Shown one piece after another: positions 1 through 51,213 of a DNA stretch of 52,458 nucleotides (its first letter is position 1; every line of letters begins with the position of its first letter). Both the position numbers and the translations under genes were made by a program. The notes beneath the pieces are model-generated. The model was not told the DNA's origin, did not search any database, and saw only the letters and a list, made by a program, of their open reading frames with translations. Source of the stretch: a virus (lineage: Duplodnaviria; Caudoviricetes); the IMG/VR virus record IMGVR_UViG_3300027754_000128, positions 1-52,458 of that record; one strand, given 5' to 3'.

Positions 1-45
1 TCCCATGTGAACAGCGGCGGCGGTCAGGGTGATCGGCTCACTCAT
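1..45 (-). CDS. 5' end of excisionase-like gene (truncated by window edge; full copy 50814-51152)
   Basis: Identical to 51108-51152 (MSEPITLTAAAVHMG). Confidence 0.8.
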   Translation of the reverse strand, partial: MSEPITLTAAAVHMG

Positions 46-106
46 GGGCTTCCCGCCCAGGCCAGGAACTCGACGTACCGGATCACCAGCCAGATCGCGC
101 CGGGGA
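1..106. repeat. 106-bp exact direct repeat, copy 1 (copy 2 at 51108-51213)
   Basis: Base-by-base identity; similarity continues with substitutions to ~190 / ~51297. Confidence 0.97.
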
Positions 107-176
107 CGACCACGAACAAGACCGCAGCGACAATGCCGACGCGGGCGGCGACGGCCAGAGCGTCTTCGCTAATCAT
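42..176 (-). CDS. Small membrane protein, allele A (44 aa)
   Basis: MISEDALAVAARVGIVAAVLFVVVPGAIWLV...; conserved allele at 51149-51283; ATGA overlaps at both ends. Confidence 0.75.
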   Translation of the reverse strand: MISEDALAVAARVGIVAAVLFVVVPGAIWLVIRYVEFLAWAGSP

Positions 177-439
177 GTGTTCTCCAGTGCCGCACTGATT
201 TCCTCGATCTCGGAACGATGCGGCGCATCCATCTTCAGCGCGTGCAAAGCAGAGGACAGCGCACCCCGCAGCCGCTCGATCTCGTCTGCCTGTCTCGCGT
301 CCCACACGACCATCTTGTTGTGCGTGGCTGTGAGTTCGCTGTTGAGACGACGCAGGCGCTCGATTTCGTCGGCGGCTTCATACATCGTAGCCAGCGTCCC
401 GGCTTCCCGGCGCAGCTTCTTTACTAGGTCATCGCTCAT
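173..439 (-). CDS. Small coiled-coil cassette protein (EAADEIERLR type), allele A
   Basis: ORF bounded by GGAGAACACATGA junctions; N-terminus shared with 51280-51483. Confidence 0.8.
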   Translation of the reverse strand: MSDDLVKKLRREAGTLATMYEAADEIERLRRLNSELTATHNKMVVWDARQADEIERLRGALSSALHALKMDAPHRSEIEEISAALENT

Positions 440-887
440 GTGTTCTCCAATTCAAATAGCTGCTTGCGCTCCAGTGGGTGGCCGTCTTTTCGTGGGCGGG
501 ACGGTACAGACCACGACCCCCCCCCCGTTCGCCAAGGCATCGCCATCCAGCACCCAGCACGCTTGCGCCTGTCTCGCTCGCCAGCAGATAGGTTCCGATG
601 CGGCGGTATCCGAGTGCGAAGCAGGCCCGAGCGGCTGCGCCGTACAGGAAGGAACAGGCGTTGCGTGTCCCGTCCGTGCATAGCCGCGTCACCTCCAACG
701 TGTTGCCATCGTCACGCATCCGAGATACCGGACGACCAACAATCACCACGCCTACAAGGAACTCTCCTGCGACTGCGCCAAGGCTGAACTTGTGGCCGAC
801 AACAGGCCGATGATGGCGATGCAAAACGCGAACAAAATCGTTCGCCGTCACCAACTCAACCTTTCGCAGTTGCAGGCGTTCGCTCAT
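436..887 (-). pseudogene. XF1762-family / Mom-like GNAT-fold protein, frameshifted in a G10 tract
   Basis: N-part ANDFVRVLHRHHRPVVGHKFSLG...GRPVSR...LEVTRLCTDGTRNACSFLY is in one frame; C-terminal GGGSWSVPSRPR...LENT is in another and ends at the cassette junction at 436. Confidence 0.75.
517..526 (-). repeat. G10 homopolymer (C10 on + strand) at the frameshift
   Basis: Ten consecutive C; G11 or G8 restores the frame. Confidence 0.9.
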
Positions 888-910
888 CGCGGGACGCGCT
901 CATCGCTCAT
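884..910 (-). other. 8-aa minigene MSDERVPR (probable cassette remnant)
   Basis: Follows a GGAGAGCACATGA junction; its stop overlaps the next start (ATGA). Confidence 0.55.
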
Positions 911-1176
911 GTGCTCTCCTCCGCCTTATGAACCAAGAGCGTGCAGCGCCGGGGCGTGAACACTTCGCCATCCTTGTGGGTGATGAAGTCGATTATCTCT
1001 TGGCAGCCGCGCTCATCGACGTGCAGCGTGCCGACATCGGGCACGTTCAGAGCGTTGACGCCAATCCACAGTGTTGTGTCGATGTCGGCGGCGTCCACCA
1101 TCGACACAACGTCCGCCTCTTGGTGGCAGGGGGGGCAATATCCCACACGCCCATGTGGACACGCTTCATCGCTCAT
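907..1176 (-). CDS. Hypothetical cassette protein with N-terminal Cys/His motif (CPHGxxGYCPPC)
   Basis: MSDEACPH...AEEST; ATGA coupling at both ends. Confidence 0.7.
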   Translation of the reverse strand: MSDEACPHGRVGYCPPCHQEADVVSMVDAADIDTTLWIGVNALNVPDVGTLHVDERGCQEIIDFITHKDGEVFTPRRCTLLVHKAEEST

Positions 1177-1589
1177 GTGCCGCGCTCCACTTCGACAGCG
1201 GCCTTGCCTTCCGGCGAGAACGCGGAAATCCACGCAGCCGGGTCGACGCCGATCGCCTTCCACCAGGCACGCTCGTCGCCGGCCTTGTGCAGGGCGGCTG
1301 GCGAGGCATCGTGGTGGTAGTCGCACAACGGCACCGTAAGCTCGTCAGGACGCCGCTGGCCTAGCTTCCCGTGACCCTGTGGCCCGATAGACCGGACATG
1401 GTGGGCATGGCTTGGCGGGGCTGTTTTATGGCCTGTACCGCGGCACGCGATGCAGGGCTGGCCCTTCACCCGCGCGATGTGCCGCTTGTTCTTCGCCGGC
1501 CCCTTTTTGACCAGCGAGCGGGAGCCGGTCTTGGGGTGGCCCCTATTCTCTATTTTTGATTTAGGGGCCGGGTCTCTGGCGCGGATCAC
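1173..1589 (-). CDS. DUF968/Ref-like Zn-binding HNH-fold protein
   Basis: PCIAC...HAHH...TVPLCDYHH...LH..GDERAWW motif; its 3' end recurs at 52398-52458 with only synonymous changes. Confidence 0.75.
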   Translation of the reverse strand: MIRARDPAPKSKIENRGHPKTGSRSLVKKGPAKNKRHIARVKGQPCIACRGTGHKTAPPSHAHHVRSIGPQGHGKLGQRRPDELTVPLCDYHHDASPAALHKAGDERAWWKAIGVDPAAWISAFSPEGKAAVEVERGT

Positions 1590-2575
1590 CAGCCGACCCA
1601 CTGGCAGAAACGCGACCAAAGGGATGGCTGAAGGGCGACCGGCTCGATGACGGGCAGGTTGGGGAGGTTTGGTGAAGGCAATTCGCCCGGCACTAAAACC
1701 TCAAGAGGGCCATGAGGCGTGGGGTAACGCTTCTTCCATTGTCCACGGTGGGCACTCCATTGAACGGCTTTGAGGGAGACGCCCAAATGTTCGGCTGCTT
1801 GACGATAGGTCATCCAGGAACCGGCGATATTGATGATAGGCGAGATGACCGGCCCGACGCTGGCGAAGGGTGGGGTGGACGGGAGCAAATGAGCTGGGAT
1901 TAATAAATCGATGCCTGTGCTGCGGCCACCAAACGCGCGCCGCTTCTGCCAGCCACCTTGCGTGGCACGACGATGGATGGTCGATACGGAGCAGTCAAAC
2001 ATCTGGACGGCACGCTCAATCGTCACCCAGACCTTGTCAGGGTCGTCGGTGTATTTCTCCAATAACTTGTCGGGAATTGCGTAGATCGGGATTCCGCGCC
2101 CCCAAGCGTATGTCTTTCTCGGGAAGGAAGAATGATGGAAGTTTGCAAAGGCGGCTTTGCGACCAGTGACTTTCGCGTAAGTAGGCCCGGTCATCCACGT
2201 CGAACCTGCGATGGGCTCCGAGGTGTTGAGTTTTGCCGCGTAGCGTTCGACCTTGGCACGCATTTTAAGCACAGCCTTTCGTCTTGCGCGGCGACCTTCT
2301 GCACTTACGCGGCGTTTCGATTTCTGTTCGAGTTCGACGGCCGGCTGTTCCGCCACCTTGGTGGCCGTCAGGGCCGCATGATCGGCGATCATGTCCGACA
2401 TCCACGTTGACGGCGGCGACGACCTCGGCCGACCCTGCGGCGCTGTATATCCATTTCCTTGCGACATGAAATTGACCTCCGGCATGGTGAGTTGTGTTCC
2501 GTCTCGGGTACGCTCTCTGACGCGCTTGATGCGAAAGTAGTCGGCGACGTGGGTGCGGCGATGGCTGCGGGTCAT
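1586..2575 (-). CDS. DNA-binding protein with tandem Xis/MerR-like HTH repeats
   Basis: WVTIERAVQMFDCSVSTIHRRA and WMTYRQAAEHLGVSLKAVQWSA repeats; start uncertain. Confidence 0.6.
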   Translation of the reverse strand: MTRSHRRTHVADYFRIKRVRERTRDGTQLTMPEVNFMSQGNGYTAPQGRPRSSPPSTWMSDMIADHAALTATKVAEQPAVELEQKSKRRVSAEGRRARRKAVLKMRAKVERYAAKLNTSEPIAGSTWMTGPTYAKVTGRKAAFANFHHSSFPRKTYAWGRGIPIYAIPDKLLEKYTDDPDKVWVTIERAVQMFDCSVSTIHRRATQGGWQKRRAFGGRSTGIDLLIPAHLLPSTPPFASVGPVISPIINIAGSWMTYRQAAEHLGVSLKAVQWSAHRGQWKKRYPTPHGPLEVLVPGELPSPNLPNLPVIEPVALQPSLWSRFCQWVGW

Positions 2576-2967
2576 GTCGGCTCCCTCAACTGGATGCCGC
2601 GCATGGCGCACACGGCATGGATGAAATCTATGAGGCTGGAGAACCCCTTCTTCCTCAGTCTCGTTGTGCTGGGGCGAAGCTGGATCGGGTGGTCGAGGAA
2701 GATCACCATGTCCGAGTCGCCGCCATGCTCGATCATCCAGGCGGTGACGAGTGCCGTCTTGGCCTCCTCAACCGTGAGCCTGCGGCCATCGTCGGTGGCT
2801 AGTCCGCCCTCGACTACCTCTTCCAGCAAAGCGTGAAGCAGGCGATTCTGCCGGCTGTTCCTGCGCGGTTCGCCGATCTCGATGACCAGCCCCTTGGTCG
2901 CGCGCCGCACGAGATCAACGGCCCGCGCCCGGTCCTCCGGGGTCTGGAGGTAGACCTGGAGGCTCAT
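2572..2967 (-). CDS. ninB: NinB/Orf-family recombination protein
   Basis: RNSRQNRLLHALL...STTRLRKKGFSSLIDFIHA motif; near ERF. Confidence 0.75.
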   Translation of the reverse strand: MSLQVYLQTPEDRARAVDLVRRATKGLVIEIGEPRRNSRQNRLLHALLEEVVEGGLATDDGRRLTVEEAKTALVTAWMIEHGGDSDMVIFLDHPIQLRPSTTRLRKKGFSSLIDFIHAVCAMRGIQLREPT

Positions 2968-3608
2968 TAGCGAATCGCCGTTCTGACCGTCTCGAAGATG
3001 CGGATGCCGGGGATGGCGCGCAGACCGCCGGCGACGGCCGCTTTGACTGCGGCCTCGTTGACCATGCAGTAGTTCCGCGGCACCAGCGACGGGTCGAGGA
3101 CTTCGTGCGTCCACTTCGTGCTGGCGCTGGCGAGCGCACCGCCGCTTGAGACGACGCGCGCGGCCTCGCGGACGACGACCGGGGCCGCCATGGGTGTCGG
3201 CTCATCGAATAGCGCCGCCGCCTCGCGTTCGGCCTTCTCGCGGGCAGCGGTTGCCGCCCGTTCCGCCGCCAGCTTCGCGGACTGGAAGCGGTTGATCGCG
3301 CCGACCACCTTGTCGATTGAGTCTTTGACCGGCTGGGAGAGGCCAGAGAAGAAGCCATCCACGGTGCGGCCGTCCGCGAGTATCTGCTGCTTCTCCTTCG
3401 TGCGGGCCGCCTCGATCGCCTTGGCAACTTCCTTCAGCGCGCGAGCCGTCTCTGCGTAGTCGCCGGCCTCGTCGTCGCTTTCAATCGCGCGGATCTCGGC
3501 CGGCACGAGCTGGGCTGCGTTCGTGGCGCCAGTCGAGAGCGCGGCGTGATCCATCGCCAGACGATCGGCGAGGGGCGGGGCATTGCCGCCGATGCCATGG
3601 CGGCTCAT
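2967..3608 (-). CDS. Coiled-coil recombination-module protein (Gp157/Gam-like C-terminus)
   Basis: GIGGNAPP start; C-terminal VKAAVAGGLRAIPGIRIFE; adjacent to ERF. Confidence 0.55.
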   Translation of the reverse strand: MSRHGIGGNAPPLADRLAMDHAALSTGATNAAQLVPAEIRAIESDDEAGDYAETARALKEVAKAIEAARTKEKQQILADGRTVDGFFSGLSQPVKDSIDKVVGAINRFQSAKLAAERAATAAREKAEREAAALFDEPTPMAAPVVVREAARVVSSGGALASASTKWTHEVLDPSLVPRNYCMVNEAAVKAAVAGGLRAIPGIRIFETVRTAIR

Positions 3609-4348
3609 GCTGCCACCGCGCCTGTGCGATCCATCGCGGCATCGTAGGCTTCGAGCAGACGTTCGTAGTCGGCCGGCAGTTCGGTCTCGATCACGCCAAG
3701 GCGGGCCTTCTCGGTCTTCCACCAGGCTTTGAGTTCGTCGGACGTGTTCATGCCCTTGAACATTTCGACCGCAGCGGCGCACCACTGCTGCTTCTTTGTC
3801 GGCGGCGCGACAATCTTGGGAGCGGGGGCCTTGGATTCGGAGATCAACCCGTCGCGAGAGGCCTCGTCCTTTGCCGCCTGCGTTCCGACCGGGCCGACAA
3901 AGCGACGTGGCCCGGCTGGCCGGAAGTCGCCGCCGCCGTTCGCCATACCCCTGGTGCCTGTGTGTTCGTCATTTCCGTCGAGGTCGACGGGCGCTACGCC
4001 ACACATTGACGACAGCGCGAACCTGCGGGCGTAGGTGATGCTTGAGCCGTGGCCGTGCTGGTCGGCCTTGGTGACGGGCATACCCAGCACTTCACTCATC
4101 CACTGACCGGACGAGTGCATCATCATTGTCTCGACCTCGATGCCGCCGCCTTCGCGGATGCGGGGGAACTGCACCACCGCGATGTTGTTGGCGGAAAGCG
4201 GCGCGCGGATCGCGTCCCAGACCGCACCGAGGTCAGCGTACTTGGAGCGGAACGCGGGATTTTCCCGATCCTTGGTCGCCCCTTCGATCGCAGCCTGCGC
4301 CTTCGCCATAGCGGCGGCGATCTCGTTGATCTGTTCACTTCGTTGCAT
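3605..4348 (-). CDS. erf: ERF-family single-strand annealing protein
   Basis: EIAAAMAKAQ...NPAFRSKYADL...HSSGQW...GSSITYARRFAL. Confidence 0.92.
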   Translation of the reverse strand: MQRSEQINEIAAAMAKAQAAIEGATKDRENPAFRSKYADLGAVWDAIRAPLSANNIAVVQFPRIREGGGIEVETMMMHSSGQWMSEVLGMPVTKADQHGHGSSITYARRFALSSMCGVAPVDLDGNDEHTGTRGMANGGGDFRPAGPRRFVGPVGTQAAKDEASRDGLISESKAPAPKIVAPPTKKQQWCAAAVEMFKGMNTSDELKAWWKTEKARLGVIETELPADYERLLEAYDAAMDRTGAVAA

Positions 4349-4559
4349 GACTTGCTCCATTGATTTTGAGGCAGGAAACCCGTGTGCCGCTCGGCACGAC
4401 GTTCGCGAGGCTGACGAGGTCGAGCGCGCAGGCGGTGGGTGACGACAGTGCCTTGCCGCGTGGGCGGCAGTCGGGGTCGCACTGCATGAGTTGCCAGCGC
4501 GGCGTGTCGGCCTGGGCCGGCAGCGCGATCAGGCAGAGCGCGAGCGCGAGGGGCTTCAT
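4335..4559 (-). CDS. Small secreted Cys-containing protein
   Basis: Signal peptide MKPLALALCLIALPAQA; four Cys in the mature part. Confidence 0.6.
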   Translation of the reverse strand: MKPLALALCLIALPAQADTPRWQLMQCDPDCRPRGKALSSPTACALDLVSLANVVPSGTRVSCLKINGASHATK

Positions 4560-4945
4560 GCGTTCCACCGATCCTCGGCGCGCTGCTCGGCGCGCTGTTC
4601 TGCGGCGTCGTCCTCGTCGGCTTGCAGGTCATCGAGCGCCTGCTCGCACGCCTGTGCCTGGCCGTCCTCGCTTTCCAGCCAGTCGGCCGCGATGCTATCG
4701 AGCGTGCCTTGGGCGAGGTCGGCGTAGGCGCCGTCGAAGGGCGACGGCTTGCCGTCTTTGAGCGGCACCGCGCTGCCCCATTCGGCCATCGCGGCCTCTG
4801 CCGGCTGGCCGCCGGATGCGTAGGACGGCCCCTGCTCTGCAACGCGGGCGTGATAGGTGAACGTGATGCGGACATCGATCTCCGCGCCTTCGTCCGCGTC
4901 GCCGACCGGGATCGTGGCGTCGATCGTGTGGGTGCTGCTCATCAC
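4556..4945 (-). CDS. Acidic hypothetical protein
   Basis: Coupled ORF in the leftward operon. Confidence 0.65.
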   Translation of the reverse strand: MMSSTHTIDATIPVGDADEGAEIDVRITFTYHARVAEQGPSYASGGQPAEAAMAEWGSAVPLKDGKPSPFDGAYADLAQGTLDSIAADWLESEDGQAQACEQALDDLQADEDDAAEQRAEQRAEDRWNA

Positions 4946-5154
4946 GCGGCCTCCAGTCCGAGATCGGAGGCGGAAACGGCGCGCGGCTGCGCCTCAACTT
5001 CCCGCTGAAGCATCTTTGCGATGCTCGCGGCATCCTTTGGGAACAGCCAGAATGTGGTTGTCACCATTGTTTTTCCGGCGTCATCGGACGCCCACAAGGA
5101 CAGTCCAATCTGACCTTTGTTCGATTGAGTGAGGTAGTTCAGCGAGGGCTTCAC
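4942..5154 (-). CDS. Hypothetical protein
   Basis: Coupled ORF with GGAG RBS. Confidence 0.6.
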   Translation of the reverse strand: MKPSLNYLTQSNKGQIGLSLWASDDAGKTMVTTTFWLFPKDAASIAKMLQREVEAQPRAVSASDLGLEAA

Positions 5155-5360
5155 GCGACATCTCCCTGGCGGTCGTTCATTGCGATGCTCGCGGCGCGGT
5201 GGGCGAGCAGAACGGCGTGCTGGCGGACGACCTGACGCTTGCTCTGGCAGAGCTGCTGGAGCGCGCGAACCAGCGTTTCGCCGATCGCGCCGGTAAACAC
5301 CGCACGCCGTGCGGCGAAGAGGGCGACCTCTTCCACTGAGGCGAGGGACAGGGCGTTCAT
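5151..5360 (-). CDS. Hypothetical protein (MNALSLASVEEV...)
   Basis: ATGA/GTGA coupling at both ends. Confidence 0.55.
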   Translation of the reverse strand: MNALSLASVEEVALFAARRAVFTGAIGETLVRALQQLCQSKRQVVRQHAVLLAHRAASIAMNDRQGDVA

Positions 5361-5593
5361 GCCGCCACCCGCATCGCGACGCCGGCTGCGTGGGCCTCGA
5401 GCATCTCGAGCGCGGCGGCGATCCGGTGGCCGGCGTAGACCTCCTGGCAGTCGGGCGCCTCGGCGATCATGTAGTGGCCGTGCCTGCGGGGCGTCCGGTA
5501 GATCGTGCCGATCCGCTGGCCGGCGTCGGTGACGACCTCGGCCGTGTCGGTCAGGCCGTCGGCGGCGGTGAAATTGAGCGGCTGAATGGTCAT
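5357..5593 (-). CDS. Hypothetical protein, first gene of the PL operon
   Basis: GGAGG RBS before ATG 5593; directly downstream of PL. Confidence 0.65.
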   Translation of the reverse strand: MTIQPLNFTAADGLTDTAEVVTDAGQRIGTIYRTPRRHGHYMIAEAPDCQEVYAGHRIAAALEMLEAHAAGVAMRVAA

Positions 5594-5616
5594 GCTGTCC
5601 CTCCGTTGTTGGAAGG

Positions 5617-5659
5617 AGAGTACGCATAATGCGTCCGCATCGTCAAACGCAAAAAGCGT
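5617..5659 (-). promoter_or_regulatory. PL promoter with two operators (5622-5634, 5647-5659)
   Basis: TTGACG-N18-TACTCT on the minus strand; ACGCATAATGCGT and ACGCAAAAAGCGT. Confidence 0.75.
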
Positions 5660-5700
5660 ACACCGCAAACAAAATGGTACGCCGCCAGAAAACCCTTAAA

Positions 5701-6387
5701 TTACTTGCGCTTACGGAAGGGCTGGTACTTTCCGATCACGAGGGCAATCAGGGCGATCTCCTCGTCTTCCGGTGGATTATCGGTATCCAGTTCAATCGGC
5801 CGCCATTTAGGGTCAGTCGAATCTGGTGCCAGGATCAGGATGTTGCCGCGCTTACGCAGTCGCTTGGCCGTCACCTCCCGTTGCCCCTGCTGAAAACGGC
5901 GCCGCTCGACAATCACGATGTCGTCTTCTGCGAACACAATGCCCGCGACGGCCTTGTCCACGCAGTGAAAGACATCCCCCGGCCCAGCAACACGGTTCAT
6001 CGACGTGCCGCGAACGATCAAGCCGTACTGTGAGTCAATTGGATAGCCGGCAGTTGGAGCTATCGGGAATTGCTCGAAGTCGTCGGCGTCCAGATCCGCG
6101 TCCAGGTCAAGCCACCGACCGGCCGCCACCTCACCGCGCGTAGGAACGGCGACCATCGCGCGCTGGGCCTTTTTCTGCGGCTGGGAACCTCCCTCTAGAA
6201 GCCACTCCCACGAAACGCTGAAGGCTCGCGCGTAGGCTTTCGCCATAGCCCGCTTAGGCACGCGCTGTCCGTTCTCGTGCGTCAAATAAGTAGACCGCAC
6301 CCAGCCAAAAGAGCGGGCGGCCTCTACTGCGGATTGGAACCCGGCTTCTTTGCGCGCCCACTTCAGACGTTCTGCTGGCGTGTTCAT
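5701..6387 (-). CDS. cI: CI-like repressor (XRE HTH + S24 peptidase)
   Basis: ERLKWARKEAG...STYLTHENG HTH; GEVAAG cleavage region; VRGTSM and TAKR catalytic motifs. Confidence 0.93.
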   Translation of the reverse strand: MNTPAERLKWARKEAGFQSAVEAARSFGWVRSTYLTHENGQRVPKRAMAKAYARAFSVSWEWLLEGGSQPQKKAQRAMVAVPTRGEVAAGRWLDLDADLDADDFEQFPIAPTAGYPIDSQYGLIVRGTSMNRVAGPGDVFHCVDKAVAGIVFAEDDIVIVERRRFQQGQREVTAKRLRKRGNILILAPDSTDPKWRPIELDTDNPPEDEEIALIALVIGKYQPFRKRK

Positions 6388-6411
6388 TAGGAACACATCG
6401 CACAGCCATCC

Positions 6412-6453
6412 ACGCAAAAGGCGTTGACGGTGAGGACGCATTATGCGTACTGT
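6412..6453 (+). promoter_or_regulatory. PR promoter with two operators (6412-6424, 6436-6448)
   Basis: TTGACG-N18-TACTGT; ACGCAAAAGGCGT and ACGCATTATGCGT; mirror image of PL. Confidence 0.75.
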
Positions 6454-6460
6454 CTCGGTC

Positions 6461-6703
6461 ATGATCACTTCGCCCTCTCAAGCAATCGAACTTCTCGGCG
6501 GCCACAAAAGCCTGTCTGGGCGCATCCATCGGCCTCTCACGACTGTCGCTTCTTGGGTGAAGCGGGATTCCATCCCCGTCGAGGTCTGGTCAAAGCTGAT
6601 CGACCTCGCGAAGGCGCGCGGCGTCGAAGGCGTCACTTACGAAACGCTCGCCCGCGCTCACGCGCCCGCTCGGCCCGGCAAGCGCAAGCGGCGTGCAGCA
6701 TGA
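6461..6703 (+). CDS. cro: Cro-like repressor
   Basis: IELLGG...TTVASWVKRDSIP..W motif; divergent from cI. Confidence 0.85.
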   Translation: MITSPSQAIELLGGHKSLSGRIHRPLTTVASWVKRDSIPVEVWSKLIDLAKARGVEGVTYETLARAHAPARPGKRKRRAA

Positions 6704-7074
6704 AGGTCCGCGCCAAACAGAACGGACCGGAGCATATAGCCCTGTTGCGTCTTGGGCAGCGTCGGGCGCGGGAACGCCGCCTGAACGGCGAGGGTTTCAT
6801 CTACGCGGCAGAACTGCCCGGCACGGATATCATTAAAATCGGCTTTTCGCTCATGCCCGAAAAAAGAGTGCGGGGCGTCAGCATCCAAAACTACGCGAGA
6901 GCGCAGTTGCTGGCGAAGACACCCGGCACCGAACCCGCTGAGCGGGCGCTGCACAAGGTCCTCCGTGAACACTGCAGGCTCGACCTGCCTGGCTTCGAGT
7001 TCTACCCGCGCGCCATCCTGTCTCATCCGGCAATTCCTTCAGGGCTACGGGTGCCCGGCAAGCGTGCAGCGTGA
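6700..7074 (+). CDS. T5orf172/GIY-YIG-like nuclease-domain protein
   Basis: GFIYA...IKIGFS..PEKRV...ERALH...EFY. Confidence 0.75.
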   Translation: MKVRAKQNGPEHIALLRLGQRRARERRLNGEGFIYAAELPGTDIIKIGFSLMPEKRVRGVSIQNYARAQLLAKTPGTEPAERALHKVLREHCRLDLPGFEFYPRAILSHPAIPSGLRVPGKRAA

Positions 7075-7284
7075 AGGCAACGGCGCTCGCGATGATCGGT
7101 TCCATGAAATCTGCCGTCTCCTATGCGCGGCACGATCACGTCGACCTGCTTCCTCCCCCCTTGGTCGCGCGTGCAACTGACGGCGGCAGGCTTGGCTTGG
7201 TCTGCCGCCGTCTCTTTCTCGACGTAGAGCCTGGCGACCACCCTCGCGGTGGCAGCGCCCAACCGAATGAAATCCCGATCACCC

Positions 7285-7629
7285 ATGCCGAAAAAAGTAC
7301 CAGCGTGCATTCACAAGGCTTTGGAAATGTCATCCACGCACAACGAAACACTGGCGGCCGCTCGTCGCCTATTGATTGAAATCTGTGGCCCACGAACTTG
7401 GAATCAGACCAGACAGGCATGGCTCGCAAGAGGTGCTGCGCTGCTGGGCTGGAAGTACCGCCGTGCGGCGGCGCTTTTCTACAATGAAGCAAGACGCATC
7501 GAGCATGACGAGTACGTCCAGCTTGAGTCCCGTCTCATCGATCTTGAACAAAAACAAGCGGCACGGGAGGCCCATCTACATGAAATCCATTCTTTACGTT
7601 CGCGCCTCGACGGCACTCGCGATGGCTGA
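7285..7629 (+). CDS. CII-like HTH regulator
   Basis: LARGAALLGWKYRRAAALFYNEARRI; position after cro; start uncertain. Confidence 0.55.
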   Translation: MPKKVPACIHKALEMSSTHNETLAAARRLLIEICGPRTWNQTRQAWLARGAALLGWKYRRAAALFYNEARRIEHDEYVQLESRLIDLEQKQAAREAHLHEIHSLRSRLDGTRDG

Positions 7630-29582: not shown

Positions 29583-31978
29583 TGGGCGTTGTCATTCCCG
29601 ATGCTGCCGACTACGGCACCCCTGTCCCGCGCGCAGCGACGACCGTCCAGTCCTATGGTGTCGGCCAGCCTGTCCAGCAGGATGTCGCCGCATGGACCTA
29701 CGCCGCGCAGTCCGCCAAGGCCGCCGCCGATAGCGACGCCAAGGCGATGGAAGGCGTGGGCGTCGAGATTGCCAAGTGGTCCGACCAGCTCCAGACCACG
29801 CAGGCGCAGGACAGCCTCAACCAGTTGCGCGCACGCCGGCAGGAACTGACGACCGGCGACAACGGCTTTATGAAGGTGCAGGGCGGCAACGTCGTCAATC
29901 CGGCGGGCGGGCAGGGTACTTCGATCTACGAGACGTTCCCGACCCAGTTCCAGGGCCACGCCGACGACATTGGCTTGAAGCTCTCTGGCAAGGCCGCGAT
30001 GCTCTACAAGCAGGCGATGGCGGCCGAGATCACCGGCTTCAAGAGCGACGTTGCCCGGCACGGCCTTGCGGAGGGCGAGAAGTACCGCGGCGCCGTGTAC
30101 AAGGACTTGCAGACCCAGCTCGACAACAAGATCGCCTCCTCGAGCGACCCGGCCGAGGTCGACAAGGGGATCGCCGACAAGATCGCGTCAGCTACGCAGT
30201 ACGCAATCTCGATCGGCATGCCGGGCGCTGCGGCGGCAAAGGCTGCCGGTTCCGACGCTGCCATGCTGGTGATCCAGAAGGCGGTCAATACCGGCGACAG
30301 CGGCGCGGCGTCGGCTGCCCTCACGAAGTACGGCACCTACCTCGACGCCAAGGACCGCATCAGGGTCGACGGCCTGGTGAAGACGCTTGCAAATCAGGAC
30401 TCTGCGGTCTCCGAGGCCGGCGCCATTCGCGCCAGTGTACTGGGCGGCGGCACAGGCGGTGATCTGGACAACAATATCGGCAACATCACGACCAGCCAGT
30501 TCCAGTATTCTGGCGGCAAGGGCGCTCCAAAGGGAGCCTTTGAGACATTCCAGACGCCGGAACATGGCGTCGCTGCCGCCTATCATACGGTTCAAGCAAA
30601 GGCGAAGCAGAACGGCGGCACGATTTCGTTCATCGAACTGATCGGTGGCAACGGCAAGGTGAAGGGCTGGGCGCCGGCCGCTAACGGTAGTTCTGATCCA
30701 CTCCTCAAGGGCAACGACCCCAACTCCTATGCAGCGCGTCTTGCTGCGGCTGTCGGGCTGAAGCCAGGCGATGCCGTCCCCGTTGGGGATGATGCGAAGA
30801 TGCAAGCCATTCTTCGCATGATGAACGTACACGAGAAGGGTAAACAAACAGTCAAGGACGATGCCTTCGGCCGCGGCATTCAGTTGGCTAAGGGTGACAC
30901 GTCTGTTGTCGCCGCGCCCGCTGCCAAGCGTTCGTCAGACCCGCTCTTCGATGACGGGCCGGCTGTAGACCCGATGAGAGACCCGCTCGGCGGCAAAGAC
31001 AATGTAGTGGCGGGCCAGGAGAACGGGGCTCTCTACAAAGACCCCGATGCCCTGCTGTACCAACTCAACCAGCAGTTTGCCGCCATGACGCGCGCGAACC
31101 AGGAGCGTTTCGCCACCAACATCGGAAAGCGCACCCTAGTCCAGACGGAACTGGAACTCTGGCACACGGCGCAGAAGAAGCAGATCGAACAGATGCGCCT
31201 CGCGCAAAAGGTGAACCTGAACCAGGTGATGACGACCGGCGGTCCTGACGGCAAGGGGCCGACCCACGAGAAGCAGATCCCGACCGAGCTGTGGGCGCAG
31301 CTCTCGTTCCGCGAGCGCGAGAGCGTGACCAATATCATCAAGCACAATGCCAAAGGCACCGAGGCCGTGACCGACCAGCAGCACTGGTATGAGATCCAGC
31401 GCGGCCTGACGAGCGCCGACCCCGTGGAGCGCCAGAAGTGGGCCGACTACGACCTGTGGCAGTCGAAGGACAAGCTCGACAACAAGGATCTGCAGGAACT
31501 GGCGAAGATGCAGGGCGTCGTCCGCAGGGGCGATCCCGACAAGCAGACGACGCATGTCCGCAACATCAATCAACTGGTCGATGATACGTTGCTAAAGCTG
31601 AGGATCGACAGCACGCCCAAGGCCGGGTCGAACGATGCCACGAAGGCATACGAGTTCCGGCGCTTCGTGCAGGATCAAATCACCGCGCTTGAAGCGACAC
31701 AGCCCGGCAAGAAGGCAACCACCGAGCAGCAGCAGAATATCATCGACCGCGCGGCGCTCGACATCGTCATGAAGAAAGGCAGGCTCTGGGACGACACGAA
31801 GCCGCGCTACGCCCTTACCATCAAGGACATCCCCGCCGAGGACAAGACCAAGATCATCGACGCCCTGACGCGCAAGAACGCAGCAGAAGCCGCCGCCACA
31901 AAGACGCAACCCAAGGCAATCTCGGAGAGTGACATCATCGACGCATTCGCACGCAAGAACGCCCAGGCCCCGAAATGA
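29582..31978 (+). CDS. Internal virion/ejection protein (gp15-like) with lysozyme-like insert
   Basis: 798 aa helical; NNIGNI...F.TPEHG...WAP...NDPNSYA segment. Confidence 0.75.
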   Translation: MGVVIPDAADYGTPVPRAATTVQSYGVGQPVQQDVAAWTYAAQSAKAAADSDAKAMEGVGVEIAKWSDQLQTTQAQDSLNQLRARRQELTTGDNGFMKVQGGNVVNPAGGQGTSIYETFPTQFQGHADDIGLKLSGKAAMLYKQAMAAEITGFKSDVARHGLAEGEKYRGAVYKDLQTQLDNKIASSSDPAEVDKGIADKIASATQYAISIGMPGAAAAKAAGSDAAMLVIQKAVNTGDSGAASAALTKYGTYLDAKDRIRVDGLVKTLANQDSAVSEAGAIRASVLGGGTGGDLDNNIGNITTSQFQYSGGKGAPKGAFETFQTPEHGVAAAYHTVQAKAKQNGGTISFIELIGGNGKVKGWAPAANGSSDPLLKGNDPNSYAARLAAAVGLKPGDAVPVGDDAKMQAILRMMNVHEKGKQTVKDDAFGRGIQLAKGDTSVVAAPAAKRSSDPLFDDGPAVDPMRDPLGGKDNVVAGQENGALYKDPDALLYQLNQQFAAMTRANQERFATNIGKRTLVQTELELWHTAQKKQIEQMRLAQKVNLNQVMTTGGPDGKGPTHEKQIPTELWAQLSFRERESVTNIIKHNAKGTEAVTDQQHWYEIQRGLTSADPVERQKWADYDLWQSKDKLDNKDLQELAKMQGVVRRGDPDKQTTHVRNINQLVDDTLLKLRIDSTPKAGSNDATKAYEFRRFVQDQITALEATQPGKKATTEQQQNIIDRAALDIVMKKGRLWDDTKPRYALTIKDIPAEDKTKIIDALTRKNAAEAAATKTQPKAISESDIIDAFARKNAQAPK

Positions 31979-34900
31979 GCGGCCCCGACGAGCTCCAGCC
32001 CGCCGCTCCCGTTGACGACGGTCTGGCGCAACTGACGGCCGACCGCAATGCAGCCGATGTTCCGCCGCCGCCCACGCCGCCTGCCAGTGCGCCTGGCCCC
32101 GCCGTCACGAACGAGTACGATGCTCTTCTGGCAGAGGCGCCCGCGAAGCCGGTCAACGAATACGACGCCGTCGTGGAGGATCTGTCCCGCGAGCGCAAAC
32201 AGACTGTGCGCGGGAACCTCATTGGCGCGCAGGCGACCACGCCAGAAGCCGCCGCGAAGTCTCTCGACCTGTCGCGCAAGACCGGCCTGCCGGCTGACAT
32301 GGTCGAGCGAAACTTGCCCAAAGTCGAGGCCGATCACAGGCTGAACGAATACGACGCCATCCTCAACGCTTCGCCCAAGACGCAGACATGGATCGCGGGC
32401 GACCCGACGAACGCCAAGGTGGCGGGCGATGAGGTCAAGAGGTTGGCCGAGATCGAAGCCATCCTGAAGCCAAGGAACATGTACGACCGCAACAGGCCGA
32501 GCAAGGCCTCGCGCTCGATCGACAGCGAGTCGGCGGATTGGGAGGCGACGGCGTTCGGTCGTGCGGGCGGTATCGTCTATGATAACAAGGCGCCCGCCGC
32601 CGCTCCGCTCTACCAGTCGCAGTGGATGTCTGGCGTCGAGAATATGGCGCAGGGCTTCAACAAGATGTCGAACCTCAATATCGCCCGCGATATTCGGACG
32701 TTCGACGCGATCGACCAGGGTAAGCCTGTCAATACGGCTGATGATCCCTATGGCTACAAGGACATGTCGAGTGACCAGCGCGCCCAGACGCGCACGCTCG
32801 CCGAGGTCCAGATCGTCAAGAACGTCGCGGCTCTCAAGCGGTCGACCGCCTTCGTCGCCGATCTGCCGCGCAACCAGAACGTCCAGCCGTTCTTCGATGC
32901 CCTCGATGATGTGCAGGCCAAGGATATGCTTTCCGTTCTGACGGATGCTCTCGGCAAGATGTCGGCGGGGATGAATGGCGCCCCGCAGGCTGGCACTGCT
33001 GGCCCTTCGCCATTGGCCGCGGCCGGCAAGATATTCGCGTCCGATTCGCTGGGTATCATGCAGCAGCTTGCGGTGGAAACGACGCCCAACATGCTCCCGA
33101 TCATCGCGGGTTCGATCGTGGGTGGTCCTGTCGGCACTTTCCTGGCATCGCAAGCTGTCGATTTCCCGTCGCGAACCGACGACTGGATCAAGCAGGAACT
33201 GGCGAAGGAAAACAAGACCGGCGTCGAGTTCATTAATGTCAACGATCCCGAGGCCGTGCAGGCATATCTGCGCGCCAACCCCGCCTTCGCCGAGAAGGCG
33301 CAGAGGATGGGATATGCTGGATCATTCGGCCCGTCTGCTGTCGACGCCGTCTCGTTCGGAGCGACCCGCCCGTTCAAACGCGGCGCAGGTTTCGCCGCGA
33401 ATACCGGACGAGTGGCCGGCAACATCGCGATGGATACCGGCCTTGAAATGGTTGGTGAGGCCGCCGGGCAGATCATCAGCGGACAGGACGAGATCAAACT
33501 CAGTGAGATTGTCGCCGAGGGATTGGGCGCGTTCCCGCATGGCGCCTCCAATACCGTTGTCGCAACGGCGCGGGAAGCATCCCGCGCCAGTACCGAGGCC
33601 AAGACCGAGGCCGCCGTCAAGGAGATCAAGGCGACCATCACGGCCGCCAACGAGTTCCTGACCGACCTGCGGACGCACGTCGCGGAGACGGAGACGCTGA
33701 CGCTCGATGACCTTGTCGACAAGGTGCAGGGCAGCACCCTCCACAAGCTGTCGCCCGAGAAGATGAAGGACTTCCTCGAGTCGCTGTCTCCTGACGAGCA
33801 GAAGGCCGACGTGTTCATCTCGTCGGATGCGGTCAGCACGCTGTTCCAGGACATGTCGGTCCTGGAGCGCGATACGCTGGCCGAGAACCTCGGCATCACC
33901 GAGCAGCTCAATTCGCTGGGCCTCAACGCCAACACCGACATCGTGATCCCGCTGCCGGTCTACCTGACGGCGATCGGCGATGCTCACAAGGCGTGGCGCG
34001 ACGACGTTCGCATGGACTTCATGGGGTTCTCCAACCGGGAGGCCATTGCGGAGGGCAAGGCCAAGGCCGAGGAGACCGCCGCTGCGGTGGCGCGCTTCGA
34101 GGAGCAGGTCGCTGCCGGCGTGCAGGATAGCCCGCAGGAGATCGTCTACCAGCAGGTGTTGGGGATGCTGAAGGCGAACGGCTTCACCAATGAGCAGGCT
34201 TCCCAGCAGGCTGCCTATGCTGCCTCGCGCTACCATGCTCGTGCGGTTCGCAGCCCGCAGATGTTCACCGACGCCCTGGATGCGTTCACGCAGTACCCGT
34301 TCACCATCCGCTCGCACCTGGGCGACGGCATCCGGGTGATCGGCCCTGACCAGCTCGACATCATGCTCGACAGCATCCGGTCGGGCAAAGATCCGGTGAT
34401 CACGCCGGCCTTCGCCCACATCGAGGCGCGCAAAGCTGCGGCCGAGGCAGAGTTGTCGACGGTCCTCGGCGAGGCACCTGTCGTCAAGACGCCCAAGCAG
34501 ATCGCGGACGAACGCAAGGCTGCCGCGCTGGGCGTGTTCCAGGCTCGCCGTCAGGAACTGGCAGACTGGCTCGAGAGCCGCGGCCTCGACCTCAAGACGG
34601 CGACCAACGCGCAGATCCGCGCCGAGATCGAGAAGGTCCAGAAGGGGACCAGCTACAACCAAGACGATGTTCTGGTTGTTAAGCAGCCCCTTTCCGACAG
34701 TTTGATCATGGTCGCCCAGCGTGGCGATCGGGCGACTGGTAATCGGCTTCTCCTGTCTACTGAAGAGAAGGCGGCCATTGCCGCGTCTGTCGGGCCGAGC
34801 GGTCTATCGGTTGCAGAAATCACCGCGACCGTTCGCAAGCACAAACTGGCCCATCCGCCGGCACAGAACTGGGAGCCTCTGGTCTTCATCAAGGCCCGCC

Positions 34901-37900
34901 TCGACAAAAAGGGCAAGCCTGAGTTCATGTACAAGTTGGTTCCCTATAGCTTCATCAGGGACAACGACGGCAAAGAGATTCAGCCATCGGAGAAGAAATA
35001 CGCGGGCAGGGTCAAGGCGCTCGGCGACGCTATTGCGGAAGAGGTTCGTGGCATCTATCGCCGCGCCGCTGCTGGCGACAAGAACGCCCAGAACATCCTG
35101 GCCCAAGCCGGCTGGTACAAGGCAATGCGTGCCAGGCTGCGCCAAGAGTTCGGTGGCCTGGGTGACCTGTTTGCCGACGCTCTCGGAGCCACGTCGCCCA
35201 ATACGCCCGTGCGCGGGAACTGGGAGAATGCGGTCGACAGCTTGCGCCGCGCGAGCCGTGGTGACTTTGATGCACTGATGCCGCAGTGGGTAGCCTGGTC
35301 TGAGAATATCGACCGGCTCGAGACCGACCTCCGCGCGTTCGTAAACGAGCAGCGCGCCAAGAAGCAGGCCTCGAAGAGCGAGCCCTGGATGGACAGCGAT
35401 AAGCCGCAGACCTTGAAGTCCATCAAGGAGATGCAGGAATACATCGATAAGAGGAAGGCTCTGTCTGAGGCGCGTGAACTGCCGCCCGACCTCATGCCGA
35501 CCAAGGAGAGTGGCGCACAGTACGGGTTCAACGGTCGCAACGTGGTGCGCGCCATGCTCGACCTGTGGCGCACAATCAAGGACGCTGATCCCGATATCGG
35601 ACGTAGCGGCACTGCGCCCAAGGCGCTCAATTTCTCTGGCAACCTCATTGGGTTCCGGGGCAAGGCGACGATCGATGTCTGGGCCGCGCGCCTGCTGCAG
35701 CGTCTGGCCGGCAAGCGCCGCATACCCAGCATGGCAGAGATAGCCGTCTCCGGTGAGATGCTTGCTGATGCTTCGACAACGGGCCAGTTCGGCTTCGGGC
35801 AGGACACTTTCGCGCATGCCGTTGCCGTCATCAGATCCGACAGCGAGATGAGCCAGGACTCTGCTCTCGCAAAAATCAATGACGACGACCTACAGGCTGT
35901 TGTCTGGTTCATCGAGAAAGAGGTCTGGACGGTCAACAACTGGACAAGCGTCTCAGGGGAGGGAGGCTCGTTCGAGTTGGAAGCCAACCTCACCGGCACG
36001 GCCAAGCAGGCCCGTGTTCGCGAGCTGCGTAAGATCATCGACAGCTCCCCGTCCGCGGCCGATGTGAAGGCGGTGGCCGGCGCCGACGCAGTCTCGGCAA
36101 AGGTCGAGGCGTGGGATGCTGAACACAAAGCGGAACTCGATGAACTGGGAGAGATCAACCAGCGCCTCGCGTCGGATACCCTGTCGAAGAAGGAAGCATC
36201 CGGTCTAAAGAAGCGCGCGGCAGAACTGCAGAAGGCCACTAAGCTGCCGAAAGAAATCGCGCAGGAGATGCGCGACGTTGCCAACGGCCAGCGACGGATT
36301 GACGAGCGCGCTGCCCAGAAGGTGTTGGCGCGGGCGGAACTGGCAACCCTTGAGCGTCCCGTCGATCGCTACGTCGGCGGTCTGTCCACGCAGATGTCGA
36401 TCGACAACCAGGGGGTGGACTACGTCCCGACCGACGCCGACATGGCCCGCTTGGGTGATGCCATCCGGCTGGCGATCTACGAGAACGATGCCACTGCAAA
36501 CGTGCTGGCCTCCAAGGCCCTGCCGACCGAGGGCCGCTACGGCAGCGTGGAGCGTTCGCTCGACCTCGAGATTGTGGCTCGCGAGGGCTACGATCCCAGC
36601 ACGGTCTGGGCCGAGATGCTGCGCCAGGCGCAGGAAGCGCGGCAGGACTCGACCTTCCTCTCCCGCGTTCTGCGGGATGGCGAGGAGATCGATTACACCA
36701 AGCACCGGCCCGGCATTGAAATATACTTCCGCGATGCCGCCGCCGCCCAGCAGCTTGAGAAGATGTTGGCCGACCTGGCGAAGGAGGGGGTGTCCTTCCT
36801 GACGGTCTCTGTCGACGGGCGCCGGATGCCCGGTTATGTGGCCGGTGCCATGCCGGCAGCGGTCGGCGTGCGCCTGCAGTACGTCCCAGAGTTCGAGCAA
36901 AGGTACGGAATAGACGACCTTTCGGGCTTGGATGACGCGGCCATTGCGGATAAGATGAAGGCCAAAGGCGACGAACTGGACGACGTTGCGATGCGCGTCG
37001 CCACCAATGTTTCAGGCGTCTCGTTTGCTGGCGTTTTCTGGCATGAGACACAGGTGGCATTCAGCCATCAGTATCAGGAGAAGATCGATGGTCTCGCAAC
37101 TGGAAGAACTGAAGCGGAAGCTGGCGCGACTGGACCCGGAGGGTGGGTCGGACAATCCGTTCGTGCAGGGCTTGCGGATGCAGATCGCCAGTCGCGAGAA
37201 GCCGCGAGCGGAGAACCCGGTGGGCAACGAGAGCCGGTGGTCGGCGGGGATGAGGGCAGCACCGGACGCGCCGGAAAAGGCGTAACTCTCAACCAGTCCG
37301 TCTACCACGGCGGCCCGCGCATCTTCGACCGCTTCAGCCTCGACTATATTGGAACGGGAGAGGGCGCGCAGGCTTTCGGTTGGGGATTATACTTCGCGTC
37401 GAAGAAGGCTCTCGCGGCGCACTATCGCGACAAGCTATCTCCCGCTGGCCCCGGTGCCGTCGAGTATCAGGGCAAGATGGTCCTCACCTCGGACGGCAAG
37501 CCTCTTCGCGCGCGGCCCGAGTGGCTGAAGGATTGGGGCAACGATCTGCAGGCGCTGATCGAGGTTGCAGTCGACGGCAACATGACATTGCCGGAGGCCA
37601 TTGCCGAGGTCCGCGCCGCCGCTAAGCAGGTCGGGTTTATCCGTCGCTTTCTGGGCTACGGCTTTAACGAGCGGTTCCTGCAGGCGATCCTCGACAAGGG
37701 CTACACCATTGGCGACTCGCAGAAGGGCCGCCTCTACACCGTCGAGATCCCCGACGATGGCGCGTACCTGCTGTGGGACAAGCCGCTCAGTGAGCAGAGC
37801 AAGGTTCTTCGCGACGCACTGCCCGCACTGATCCAGAAATACGGCGGTGACCTCTCCAAGATCATTGGCGCCAACGGCCAACTGCGCGACAGCGTGACGG

Positions 37901-42105: not shown

Positions 42106-43344
42106 ATGACATTAGACCGGCGCCTGGGCGTCTCTGGCGGCACCGCCTTGAAGGCACCGTGCCTAGTGGCGACGACGGCCAACATCACGCTGTCCGGTCT
42201 GCAGACGATCGACGGCGTGACCGTCGTTGCCGATGATCGTGTGCTGGTGAAGAACCAGACGACCGGCAGCGAGAACGGCATTTATCTGGCGAACACCTCG
42301 ACGTGGACGCGGGCGGTCGACTTCAACGGCACGCGCGACGCGGTACAAGGAACGCTGGTCCTGGTGATCTCAGGAACAGTCGGCGGAAATGCCCTGTTCC
42401 AACTGACGACGGCGACGCCGGTCATCGGCACCTCTAGCCTAACCTTCACGCCGTCGAGCGCGGGCGCGCTGTCGCTCGCTTCGACCTTCATGCTGACGGT
42501 GCTGGATGACACTACGGCGGCAGCGGCGCGGACCACGCTCGATGTGCCGAGCAATGCCGAGGCCATTCTGGATACAATCGTTGATGCCGCGGGCGATCTG
42601 ATCGTCGGCACGGCGGCCGATACTGTAGCCCGCCTTGCCAAGGGGACTGCCCTGCAGGTCTTGCGCGTCAATTCCGGCGCAACCGCGCTCGAATGGGCGG
42701 CGGCGCCGAACGCCACCGCGCCAACCTATCAGGTTCTCACCAGCGGGACGGCGGCTACATACACAACGCCAGCCGGCGTTCGCTATATCAGGGTCGTGTT
42801 CGTAGGCGGCGGCGGCGGTGGTGGCGGCGCTGGCGGCTCTACCGCACCGACTGGCGCAACGGGCGGCACGACATCGTTCAACTCGATCACGGCCATCGGC
42901 GGCTCTGGCGGTGTCGGATCAATCGGGACTACGGGTGCTGGTGGCATCGGCGGCACGGGTGGCGCTGGAACGGCTACTTGGCGCCTGCCGGGCGGCCCCG
43001 GCTCAACTGGTTCGGGAACGTTCGGCTACGTTCAGGGTGGCAATGGCGGCGTAGGCCCGTTTGGTGGGGCGTCTGGCACGGGCGTCAACGGGGGCGTCGG
43101 CGTTGCTGGACAGGCGAACACGGGAGCCGGTGGCTCGGGCACCGGCACCGCAGCCGCGACCAATGCTTCCGGTGGCGGCGGCGCTGGCGAGTACGTTGAA
43201 TTGATCATCGGCAGTCCTGCGGCGACCTACACCTACACGGTGGGGGCTGGTGGCGCGGGCGGCATTGGGACAGGGGCGTCGCCGCTGACCGGAGGCGCGG
43301 GTGGCAGCGGCATCATCGTTGTCGAAGAACACTACAACTTCTAG
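42106..43344 (+). CDS. Tail fibre-like protein with C-terminal glycine-rich domain
   Basis: ATTANITLSGLQTIDGV...RVLVKNQT...NGIY N-domain; GGGGGGG.../GGAGGSGIIVVEE domain. Confidence 0.8.
   Translation: MTLDRRLGVSGGTALKAPCLVATTANITLSGLQTIDGVTVVADDRVLVKNQTTGSENGIYLANTSTWTRAVDFNGTRDAVQGTLVLVISGTVGGNALFQLTTATPVIGTSSLTFTPSSAGALSLASTFMLTVLDDTTAAAARTTLDVPSNAEAILDTIVDAAGDLIVGTAADTVARLAKGTALQVLRVNSGATALEWAAAPNATAPTYQVLTSGTAATYTTPAGVRYIRVVFVGGGGGGGGAGGSTAPTGATGGTTSFNSITAIGGSGGVGSIGTTGAGGIGGTGGAGTATWRLPGGPGSTGSGTFGYVQGGNGGVGPFGGASGTGVNGGVGVAGQANTGAGGSGTGTAAATNASGGGGAGEYVELIIGSPAATYTYTVGAGGAGGIGTGASPLTGGAGGSGIIVVEEHYNF
42739..43329 (+). repeat. Gly-rich domain repeat, copy 1 (copy 2 at 44389-44979)
   Basis: Colinear at offset 1650, mostly synonymous differences. 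Confidence 0.92.
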
Positions 43345-43353
43345 GAACCGAAC

Positions 43354-43665: not shown

Positions 43666-43704
43666 AGTAGCGACCAGTAGGCCGTTCGACCGGGTGCGTC
43701 ATCC

Positions 43705-43748
43705 AGTAGACGCCACCTAACAGGAAACCGACCGAGCCAAGGTATCCT
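43705..43748 (+). promoter_or_regulatory. Putative late promoter 4
   Basis: AGTAGACGCCAC-N26-TATCCT. Confidence 0.72.
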
Positions 43749-43783
43749 CTTCTCAATCCCACGAAACCCTGGGGAGAGGACAC

Positions 43784-51152: not shown

Positions 51153-51213
51153 GGGCTTCCCGCCCAGGCCAGGAACTCGACGTACCGGATCACCAGCCAG
51201 ATCGCGCCGGGGA
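51108..51213. repeat. 106-bp exact direct repeat, copy 2
   Basis: Identical to 1-106. Confidence 0.97.

Follow-up and report, generated by a model that had tools for sequence, protein, structure and literature searches.

The whole of IMG/VR virus record IMGVR_UViG_3300027754_000128 (52,458 bp, 64% guanine plus cytosine (GC); hereafter the window) was analysed, and at both of its ends we find an array of small minus-strand genes whose borders are marked by one repeated 13-nt joint, GGAGAACACATGA. The joint is the commonest form of a combined stop, Shine-Dalgarno sequence and start that would serve as the border unit of a hypervariable accessory array. The explanation that we favour, with somewhat better than even confidence, is that the array is a mosaic of the lambdoid type, assembled at boundary sequences within a translationally coupled accessory operon, its joints having spread through exchange combined with selection for coupling. 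The original prediction for this DNA had described swappable cassettes whose standardised plug-in ends allow short-homology exchange. The two window ends are variant copies of one early-left locus (copy A, from position 1, and copy B, running to 52458), with flanks about 90% identical and different genes between the matching blocks.

Anatomy of the joint

Exact copies of the 13-mer lie at 173-185, 436-448, 51280-51292, 51480-51492 and 52150-52162, and a one-mismatch form (GGAGAGCACATGA) lies at 907-919. The minus strand carries all six, against an expectation of 0.03, and none of 100 shuffles reached six; the positions and strand originally listed were thus reproduced. Likewise, the start sequence that had been noticed at five genes, ATGAGCGATG, was counted five times against 0.24 expected (430-439, 901-910, 1167-1176, 51788-51797 and 52144-52153). 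Within the window the 13-mer is confined to the small-gene array between the DUF968/HNH gene and xis. At each joint TGA is the stop of the upstream open reading frame (ORF), which ends -ENT* (-EST* at 907), ATG is the start of the next ORF, and GGAG stands 5 nt 5' of that ATG within the 13-mer; the claim that last codons, ribosome-binding site and next start coincide agrees with the ORF reading at every site. Of the consecutive junctions between DUF968 and xis in both window arrays, 11 of 11 are ATGA overlaps, and these arrays have the layout of a translationally coupled operon, with stop and start overlapping and the Shine-Dalgarno sequence inside the upstream gene. Some joints extend further, to 20-21 nt with ATGAGCGATGA, to 28 nt with ..CGCGCAGCACT.. 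and to 36-48 nt where the MSDDLV.RL start is included.

The five exact copies are all real, yet not all independent. Because the window ends are copies of one locus, the joints at 173 and 51280 are one junction, those at 436 and 51480 share the same downstream gene, and two of the five exact 13-mers amount to one junction counted twice. The same duplication could suggest that the repeat is an artefact of assembly, a chimeric or wrapped-around contig having doubled the locus, and both array variants do occur in the same sample and, at similar depth, in run X3. We find this hardly credible: the motif is present two to three times within a single copy, and it recurs in five further non-redundant arrays from other samples (L007, L009, L046, L049 and L050) as well as in Logan contigs of two studies.

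Recurrence in related arrays

Relatives were recruited using the transmembrane (TM) protein encoded downstream of the array and the motif as anchors, and 10 non-redundant arrays were kept: the two window copies, L007, L009, L044, L045, L046, L047, L049 and L050. Left out were L039 and L042 (L007's contig), L010 (without the TM gene), L040 and L043 (array like that of L044), L041 and L132 (array like that of L045), L048 and L051 (TM gene at the locus edge, without an upstream array) and L008, whose matches are identical to those of L009. A scan of viral contigs with GGAGAACACATGANCGATG had given four loci, of which L007, L008 and L009 were related and L006 was set aside as unrelated. In GTDB species genomes the same query gave 28 loci, about the chance level, none of them related by blastn. 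A DUF968-anchored protein scan gave no loci, and an A3-anchored scan gave five, four of which (L133-L136, 43-48% GC) were dropped as unrelated phages.

The 10 arrays, totalling 16,815 nt, hold 14 exact copies of the 13-mer, with at least one copy in 7 of the 10, and the ATG of all 14 is a gene start. By our own tally, using BLASTP families, these copies join 11 distinct pairs of upstream and downstream genes, the upstream partners being the XF1762/Mom-like, Lar and HNH genes, a beta-solenoid protein (PF18836), the B1 and A3 families and three orphans. A short conserved sequence is therefore found exactly at the borders of non-homologous genes, and it is common to related but distinct phages, whose TM proteins are 64-100% identical. 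In L050 a TAG stop of the upstream gene abuts the motif, which there forms an untranslated leader. The 13-mer is also present in Logan contigs of runs from two other studies.

Such a joint could be a pure expression signal, either an optimal termination-reinitiation cassette or an operator through which a translational repressor, a small RNA or a CsrA-like factor co-regulates the array genes, with the mosaic arising through illegitimate recombination and selection and the motif having no role in recombination. Several features fit. GGAG lies 5 nt before the ATG of an ATGA overlap, all 11 window junctions have the layout of coupling, and mini-ORFs (described below) would sustain the relay. The 13-mer is mostly unpaired in the predicted folds of the six window joints (z-scores -0.46 to +1.40). 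Stops in both other frames within 14 nt of the ATG (ATGAGCGATGA, ATGATTAG or ATGAGTGA), which end any upstream frame near the start, accompany 33 of 47 array starts and 2 of 15 controls. However, immediately upstream of the ATG the 47 junctions of the same arrays (a set curated by hand with an [AG]TGA filter) show 26 different 9-mers, GGAGAACAC accounting for 14 of the 47; the second commonest 9-mer, with six copies, is the orthologous junction from TM to xis, and the sub-lineage of L044 and L045 uses another repeated joint, CTCAAGGAGACGCAGACATGA. The 13-mer sequence is thus not forced by function. No gene needs the exact 13-mer, because orthologues (TM, Lar, the A3 family) stand behind different joints in relatives, and late genes with ATGA overlaps never use it. 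An identical AACAC spacer at 11 unrelated gene pairs would be unexpected under convergence. When each repeated start is counted a single time, about 6 of 16 start types show the double stop, beside 2 of 15 controls, a difference that is not significant. Rfam gave no credible match on either array. An expression signal as the whole explanation seems to us possible though unlikely.

The double stops also enter a reading that we hold to be quite doubtful, in which the joint would be at once a standardised, frame-tolerant plug (GGAG-AACAC-ATGA, then a second stop in another frame from ATGAGCGATGA, ATGATTAG or ATGAGTGA) and, with its 13-48 nt, a landing pad for ERF, exonuclease and NinB, giving a system, built into the operon, for exchanging counter-defence cassettes without a dedicated recombinase. 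Any gene body placed between two such joints would then stop beside the next start, and the relay would be kept to xis and int.

The joint as a property of the array

If the motif marked gene junctions in general it should also occur at non-variable ones, a check that came out in favour of array specificity: the 13-mer is missing from all 15 well-supported ATGA junctions that served as controls elsewhere in the window. A second comparison used XF1762/Mom-like genes of other phages in IMG/VR, for which 80 loci were kept out of 300 relatives, the 3' end being readable in 74. In the 448,591 nt around these 80 genes the 13-mer does not occur. Their conserved protein closes with ..KLLFE, and the tails after it are unrelated; set against the 74 readable 3' ends from other phages, LFE-LENT* is found only in the window and L049. 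The idea that cassettes carry the standard ends with them is contradicted by this, and the joint is instead a property of the array into which a cassette has come.

The shared ends might alternatively belong to diverged paralogues of one ancestral small gene that kept its termini while the middle changed. In keeping with this, the A3-family genes combine an N-terminal MSDDLV.RLRREAGTLATMYEAADEIERLR module, an internal EIERLR module and a C-terminal ARAALENT module in varied ways. To that extent the description of the joined genes as otherwise unrelated has to be softened, since A3 and the copy B cassette B4 share an N-terminal module and several genes share the EIERLR-coding segment; it stands for the separate families that the joint brings together. 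The XF1762/Mom-like, Lar, HNH and beta-solenoid proteins each have a wide family of their own, these ends are missing from the XF1762/Mom-like genes of other phages, and BLASTP finds no similarity between partner genes outside the A3 and B1 families. Common descent of all the joined genes is in our view improbable.

Breakpoints and gene-content differences

Comparison of the two window copies gives three matching blocks: 1-193 with 51108-51300 (91% identity), 351-448 with 51395-51492 (91%) and 1173-1233 with 52398-52458 (90%). The start of one coincides with base 1 of the 13-mer (448/51492), another stops 8 nt after the 13-mer (193/51300), and the third terminates at the DUF968 stop.

A gene-content difference comes from lake and river water sampled in two other studies: in the Logan contigs of their runs X6 and X10, position 1183 is followed, after two differing letters, by 913. 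The 269-nt unit from joint to joint that holds cassette A1 (914-1182) is consequently missing there. Array parts of X5, X6 and X10 without contig cover were not counted as absent, and only the bridged stretch 913-1183 was used. In the same contigs, 413-913, comprising the mini-ORF, the Mom-like gene with its joint and 26 nt from the start of the following gene, shows four differences, whereas the DUF968 gene has 45 in 458 nt and the TM region 24 in 250 nt. A Mom-like cassette that is 99% identical thus sits inside flanks of about 90%, with one border inside the joint. Similarly, L045 differs from L044 in a PAPS-reductase-like gene (phrog_424, 2e-48) inserted in that lineage's own joint and flanked by repeated CACTCAAGGAGACGCAG. 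Over all array pairs, 110 of the 194 endpoints of high-scoring segment pairs are no more than 15 nt from a gene start, where 20.8 would be expected and the highest of 2000 simulations gave 35.

We therefore retain in part the expectation that breakpoints map to the 13-mer. Content differences are bounded by joints, and identity steps or indel borders fall at 913 (inside the joint), 1183, 448 and 193, but breakpoints are often at an ATG behind a differing joint, and the scars are imprecise. Plug-in joints for short-homology exchange fare in the same way: the motif is array-specific, joins 11 gene pairs and bounds the differences, but it is short, and breakpoints and scars are not precise.

Mini-ORFs as apparent scars

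Four mini-ORFs of 8-11 codons consist of one cassette's first codons fused to another's last codons. Placed between genes of full size, they leave the stop-start chain unbroken. Besides the one in copy A (884-910, minus strand, 8 codons, MSDERVPR*), which starts at a joint and whose stop overlaps the start of the next gene, they are MSDPTKENT* in L009 (10375-10404), which is L007's gene 1 with the interior gone, MTSLKETQT* in L045 (4739-4768) and VSAQDLPLVKG* in L049 (4283-4318), a remnant of a Lar-like start. That these products kept both joints matches what selection for an unbroken ribosome relay would leave. Imprecise recombination with selection for translational coupling would thus also appear to shape the array.

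Proposed mechanism and its weight

Under the boundary-sequence explanation, the joints would be inherited pieces of DNA, identical by descent and not re-invented gene by gene, and gene bodies would be swapped between co-infecting relatives by recombination at or just inside them. The homology available for this would run from 13 to about 48 nt, made up of the 13-mer, the ATGAGCGATGA start and the terminal modules ..ARAALENT* and MSDDLV.RL. The phage's own ERF, exonuclease and NinB probably assist; the proposal that ERF and NinB are used agrees with all three being encoded just upstream, and their part at the joints we infer from that position. Recombinants that destroy a joint would break the ribosome relay to xis and int and be lost. 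Because such recombinants are lost, imprecise events would survive only with both joints, leaving mini-ORF relays. Short-homology exchange and coupling selection probably both maintain the joints.

Several points weigh against this explanation. The comparison rests on only about 10 non-redundant arrays, and the one locus from an integrase-anchored scan, L010 (integrase 63% identical, similar xis), is without the motif. In the available portion of PMC3945230 the minimal pairing segment of Red-beta is given as 23-27 bp; the 13-mer falls below this, and among the joints just the extended ones, at 20-48 nt, approach it. Because TM, xis and A3 blocks recur in many pairs, the endpoint counts lack independence, and the junctions were chosen by us. 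Many homology blocks start 1-3 nt 5' of the ATG although the upstream joints differ, as for Lar in copy B against L009 and for the TM gene, which stands behind five different joints; crossovers accordingly do not require the 13-mer. Breakpoints at gene boundaries are to be expected in any overlapping operon by selection alone. Finally, the mini-ORFs look like scars of imprecise events inside cassettes and not of joint-to-joint exchange.

Genes of the two arrays

All genes of both arrays are on the minus strand. The upstream anchor of copy A is a DUF968/Ref-like HNH gene (1173-1619; PF06147, 31.6 bits, cut-off 27.8; phrog_1588, 6e-16) that ends in the joint GGAGCGCGGCACATGA (1173-1188), and the order from there is A1, the 8-codon mini-ORF, the XF1762/Mom-like gene and A3. 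Cassette A1 (907-1176, 89 aa) has no family match; ATGAGCGATGA forms its start, and its -EST* end falls in the one-mismatch joint (907-919). The XF1762-family/Mom-like cassette (436-887; NF045478, 174.3 bits, cut-off 50; phrog_1384, 1.5e-33) has a conserved C-terminal frame that ends LFELENT* in the 13-mer at 436-448; the label 'Mom-like' rests on the PHROG match, because the Pfam Mom model gave 14.3 bits, below its cut-off of 27.1. Cassette A3 (173-439, 88 aa, a coiled-coil-like mosaic) starts at the joint at 436-448 and ends -ALENT* in the 13-mer at 173-185. The downstream anchor is the 44-aa TM protein (42-176); xis starts right after it, at 45, and is cut by the window end.

The order in copy B is B1, B2, the Lar-type gene and B4, following the 3' end of a DUF968 gene (52398-52458) that is cut by the window end. 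Cassette B1 (52150-52401, 83 aa) ends -KENT* in the 13-mer at 52150-52162, and its relatives are L044_42, L045_689 and L007_457. B2 (51794-52153, 119 aa), also without a family match, starts at that 13-mer joint and ends at another joint, GAGGTGCCAGCATGA. B3 (51480-51797) encodes a restriction-alleviation protein of the Lar type (PF14354, 40.2 bits, cut-off 28.6; TIGR03655 at 37.5 bits is slightly below its cut-off of 39.6), whose EIERLR-containing tail ends -RENT* in the 13-mer at 51480-51492. B4 (51280-51483, 67 aa) ends -ALENT* in the 13-mer at 51280-51292, and its N-terminal 30 residues are 90% identical to those of A3. The TM protein gene of this copy was placed at 51149-51283 by ORF reading. 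Judged by family matches, the cassettes that can be named, including the PAPS-reductase-like gene of L045, would all be of DNA-modification or anti-restriction type.

The Mom-like gene of copy A is out of frame as assembled, through a run of ten G on the coding strand (C10 on the plus strand, 517-526) that is the window's sole G/C homopolymer of at least 8. Hence the -ENT stop that had been read for the gene ending at 436 is reached only in the conserved C-terminal frame. The peptide of that frame matches 74 of the 80 relatives, whereas that of the assembled frame matches 4; of 11 substitutions relative to L049, 10 are synonymous in the conserved frame (alignment read manually). In L049 the run is one base shorter and the gene likewise out of frame; in the X6 and X10 contigs it is one base longer and the gene is in frame. 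The run is either an assembly error or a length-variable on/off tract.

Apart from the joints, a segment coding for (D)EIERLR(A/G)AL recurs inside otherwise different genes, at 257-289, 51385-51417 and 51582-51614 and also in L009, L044, L045 and L047. Its matches span 20-37 nt and reach 100% identity across unrelated contexts, and several homology blocks end at it, 88-91 nt into A3-family genes. It resembles an intragenic version of the joint that stays in frame. In L009 (and in L008, with the same array) the GC-rich array gives way after the Lar gene, from about 10590, to AT-rich, foreign-looking DNA, and an out-of-frame EIERLR remnant precedes the switch.

Layout of the record

The minus-strand gene order is cI-like repressor, ERF, exonuclease, NinB, a 329-aa helix-turn-helix (HTH) protein, the DUF968/Ref-like HNH gene, the array, TM, xis, int and att. 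The repressor (5701-6468) was placed by family searches of the PHROG and Pfam type. ERF (3605-4360; phrog_2324, 2e-32), the exonuclease (2967-3608; phrog_10477, 7e-6) and NinB/Orf (2572-3114; phrog_72, 3e-19) form a recombination module at 2572-4360 that lies upstream of the array in the same operon. Towards the other window end, a xis-like HTH gene starting at 51152 (phrog_1840) and a tyrosine integrase gene (about 49999-50985; PF00589, 49.8 bits) occupy 49999-51152, also on the minus strand. Beyond these, at about 49930-49998, a stretch like a tRNA 3' end (T-arm plus acceptor 3' end), read by eye only, is flanked by the integrase on one side and by PHROG-matching phage genes on the other, which looks like an attP-like layout; neither ARAGORN nor Rfam calls a tRNA there. 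The phage is best read as a lambdoid-style freshwater temperate phage with the array in its early-left operon.

Because both ends carry the same locus, the contig exceeds one genome length. Two origins would account for this: the assembly may have unrolled a circular genome at a strain 'bubble', or two related prophages may lie in tandem.

The late region holds a single ORF of 3,356 aa (31975-42045, plus strand). Downstream of it are a direct repeat of 300 nt (82% identity; 42713-43012 and 44363-44662, 1,650 nt apart) and, nearby, a four-copy family of a 29-nt repeat that codes for glycine-rich sequence (43063-44918). These repeats may be duplicated tail-fibre-like modules.

Comparison with known systems

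The array resembles an integron array in having promoterless single-gene cassettes of one orientation and variable content with a repeated short boundary sequence, and, since these cassettes adjoin a tyrosine recombinase gene, the 13-mer could be taken for the site of a dedicated site-specific system. A scan of 1-7500 for promoters and terminators picked up no promoter-like site; its terminator-like hits were weak, with none of them at a joint. The differences are that IntI, attI, attC and structured sites are lacking, that there is no evidence of circular cassettes, and that the joints are features of the array. With the IntI model TIGR02249 the integrase reaches 34.9 bits, against a cut-off of 265 bits; it has an ordinary Phage_integrase domain and adjoins the attP-like site. 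No attC-like inverted repeat was found at the joints, and the six joints with the 13-mer or its one-mismatch form, which were folded along with two other joints, gave folds no better than those of shuffles. Moreover, the same gene occurs in other phages without the site, and the scars and variable breakpoints are unlike precise exchange. The description of the array as integron-like therefore has to be given up: with the sole integrase an ordinary phage enzyme and no attC-like structure, the array is no integron analogue, and a dedicated recombinase acting at the 13-mer is very improbable.

The other original comparison, with lambdoid boundary sequences, is apt as far as the available portion of PMC3029335 goes. 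That text credits short conserved boundary ('linker') sequences at the joints of lambdoid mosaics to Susskind and Botstein (1978) and, for HK620, to Clark et al. (2001). There as here, short identical sequences border non-homologous modules in related temperate phages and are proposed substrates of homologous recombination, general or phage-encoded, and here too the early operon lies beside erf/ninB-type recombination genes. The present case differs in that the conserved unit is the stop, ribosome-binding site and start of a chain that looks fully coupled and spans only 13-21 nt itself, in that up to three occur per array and mark single small genes, not multi-gene modules, and in that the phages are an uncultured freshwater group with 64% GC, not coliphages.

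A third comparison is with relaxed recombination by Rad52-like proteins. On diverged DNA the Erf/Exo pair of phage D3 matches Red in recombination (De Paepe et al. 2014, PMC3945230), and in the available portion of that study of Red-beta, RecT and Erf the homologies are hundreds of bp long with 2-33% divergence. The likeness lies in an Erf-family annealing protein with an exonuclease and NinB/Orf encoded upstream, and in mosaics with short identity patches at their borders; the difference is that the joints here would offer 13-48 nt.

Since 1978 it has been debated whether phage mosaics arise by homologous exchange at short linkers or by random illegitimate joining followed by selection. The usual objection to the former is that linker sequences are not findable at most mosaic borders (available text of PMC3029335). 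Against this background the array is an unusually clean natural test bed, with one identical joint at many unrelated gene pairs and variants that co-occur in the same waters. It further offers the joint-to-joint presence or absence of one cassette, a 99% identical cassette in flanks of about 90%, and adjoining ERF, exonuclease and NinB genes. Through its mini-ORF relays it also illustrates how coupling selection may standardise gene borders, and it points to a site where uncultured freshwater phages keep and swap counter-defence genes.

Lambdoid phages and prophages have a variable accessory stretch between xis and the recombination genes (the ea genes of P22, lar/ralR of Rac), and the array occupies the same early-left position and likewise holds small non-essential genes, a Lar-type gene among them. 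To our knowledge one identical coupling joint repeated through this accessory stretch has not been reported, and a literature search, with most older subscription papers outside its reach, returned no description of a repeated coupling joint. Set beside these systems, the array would add a new and clean case to the boundary sequences that have long been proposed as drivers of phage gene shuffling.

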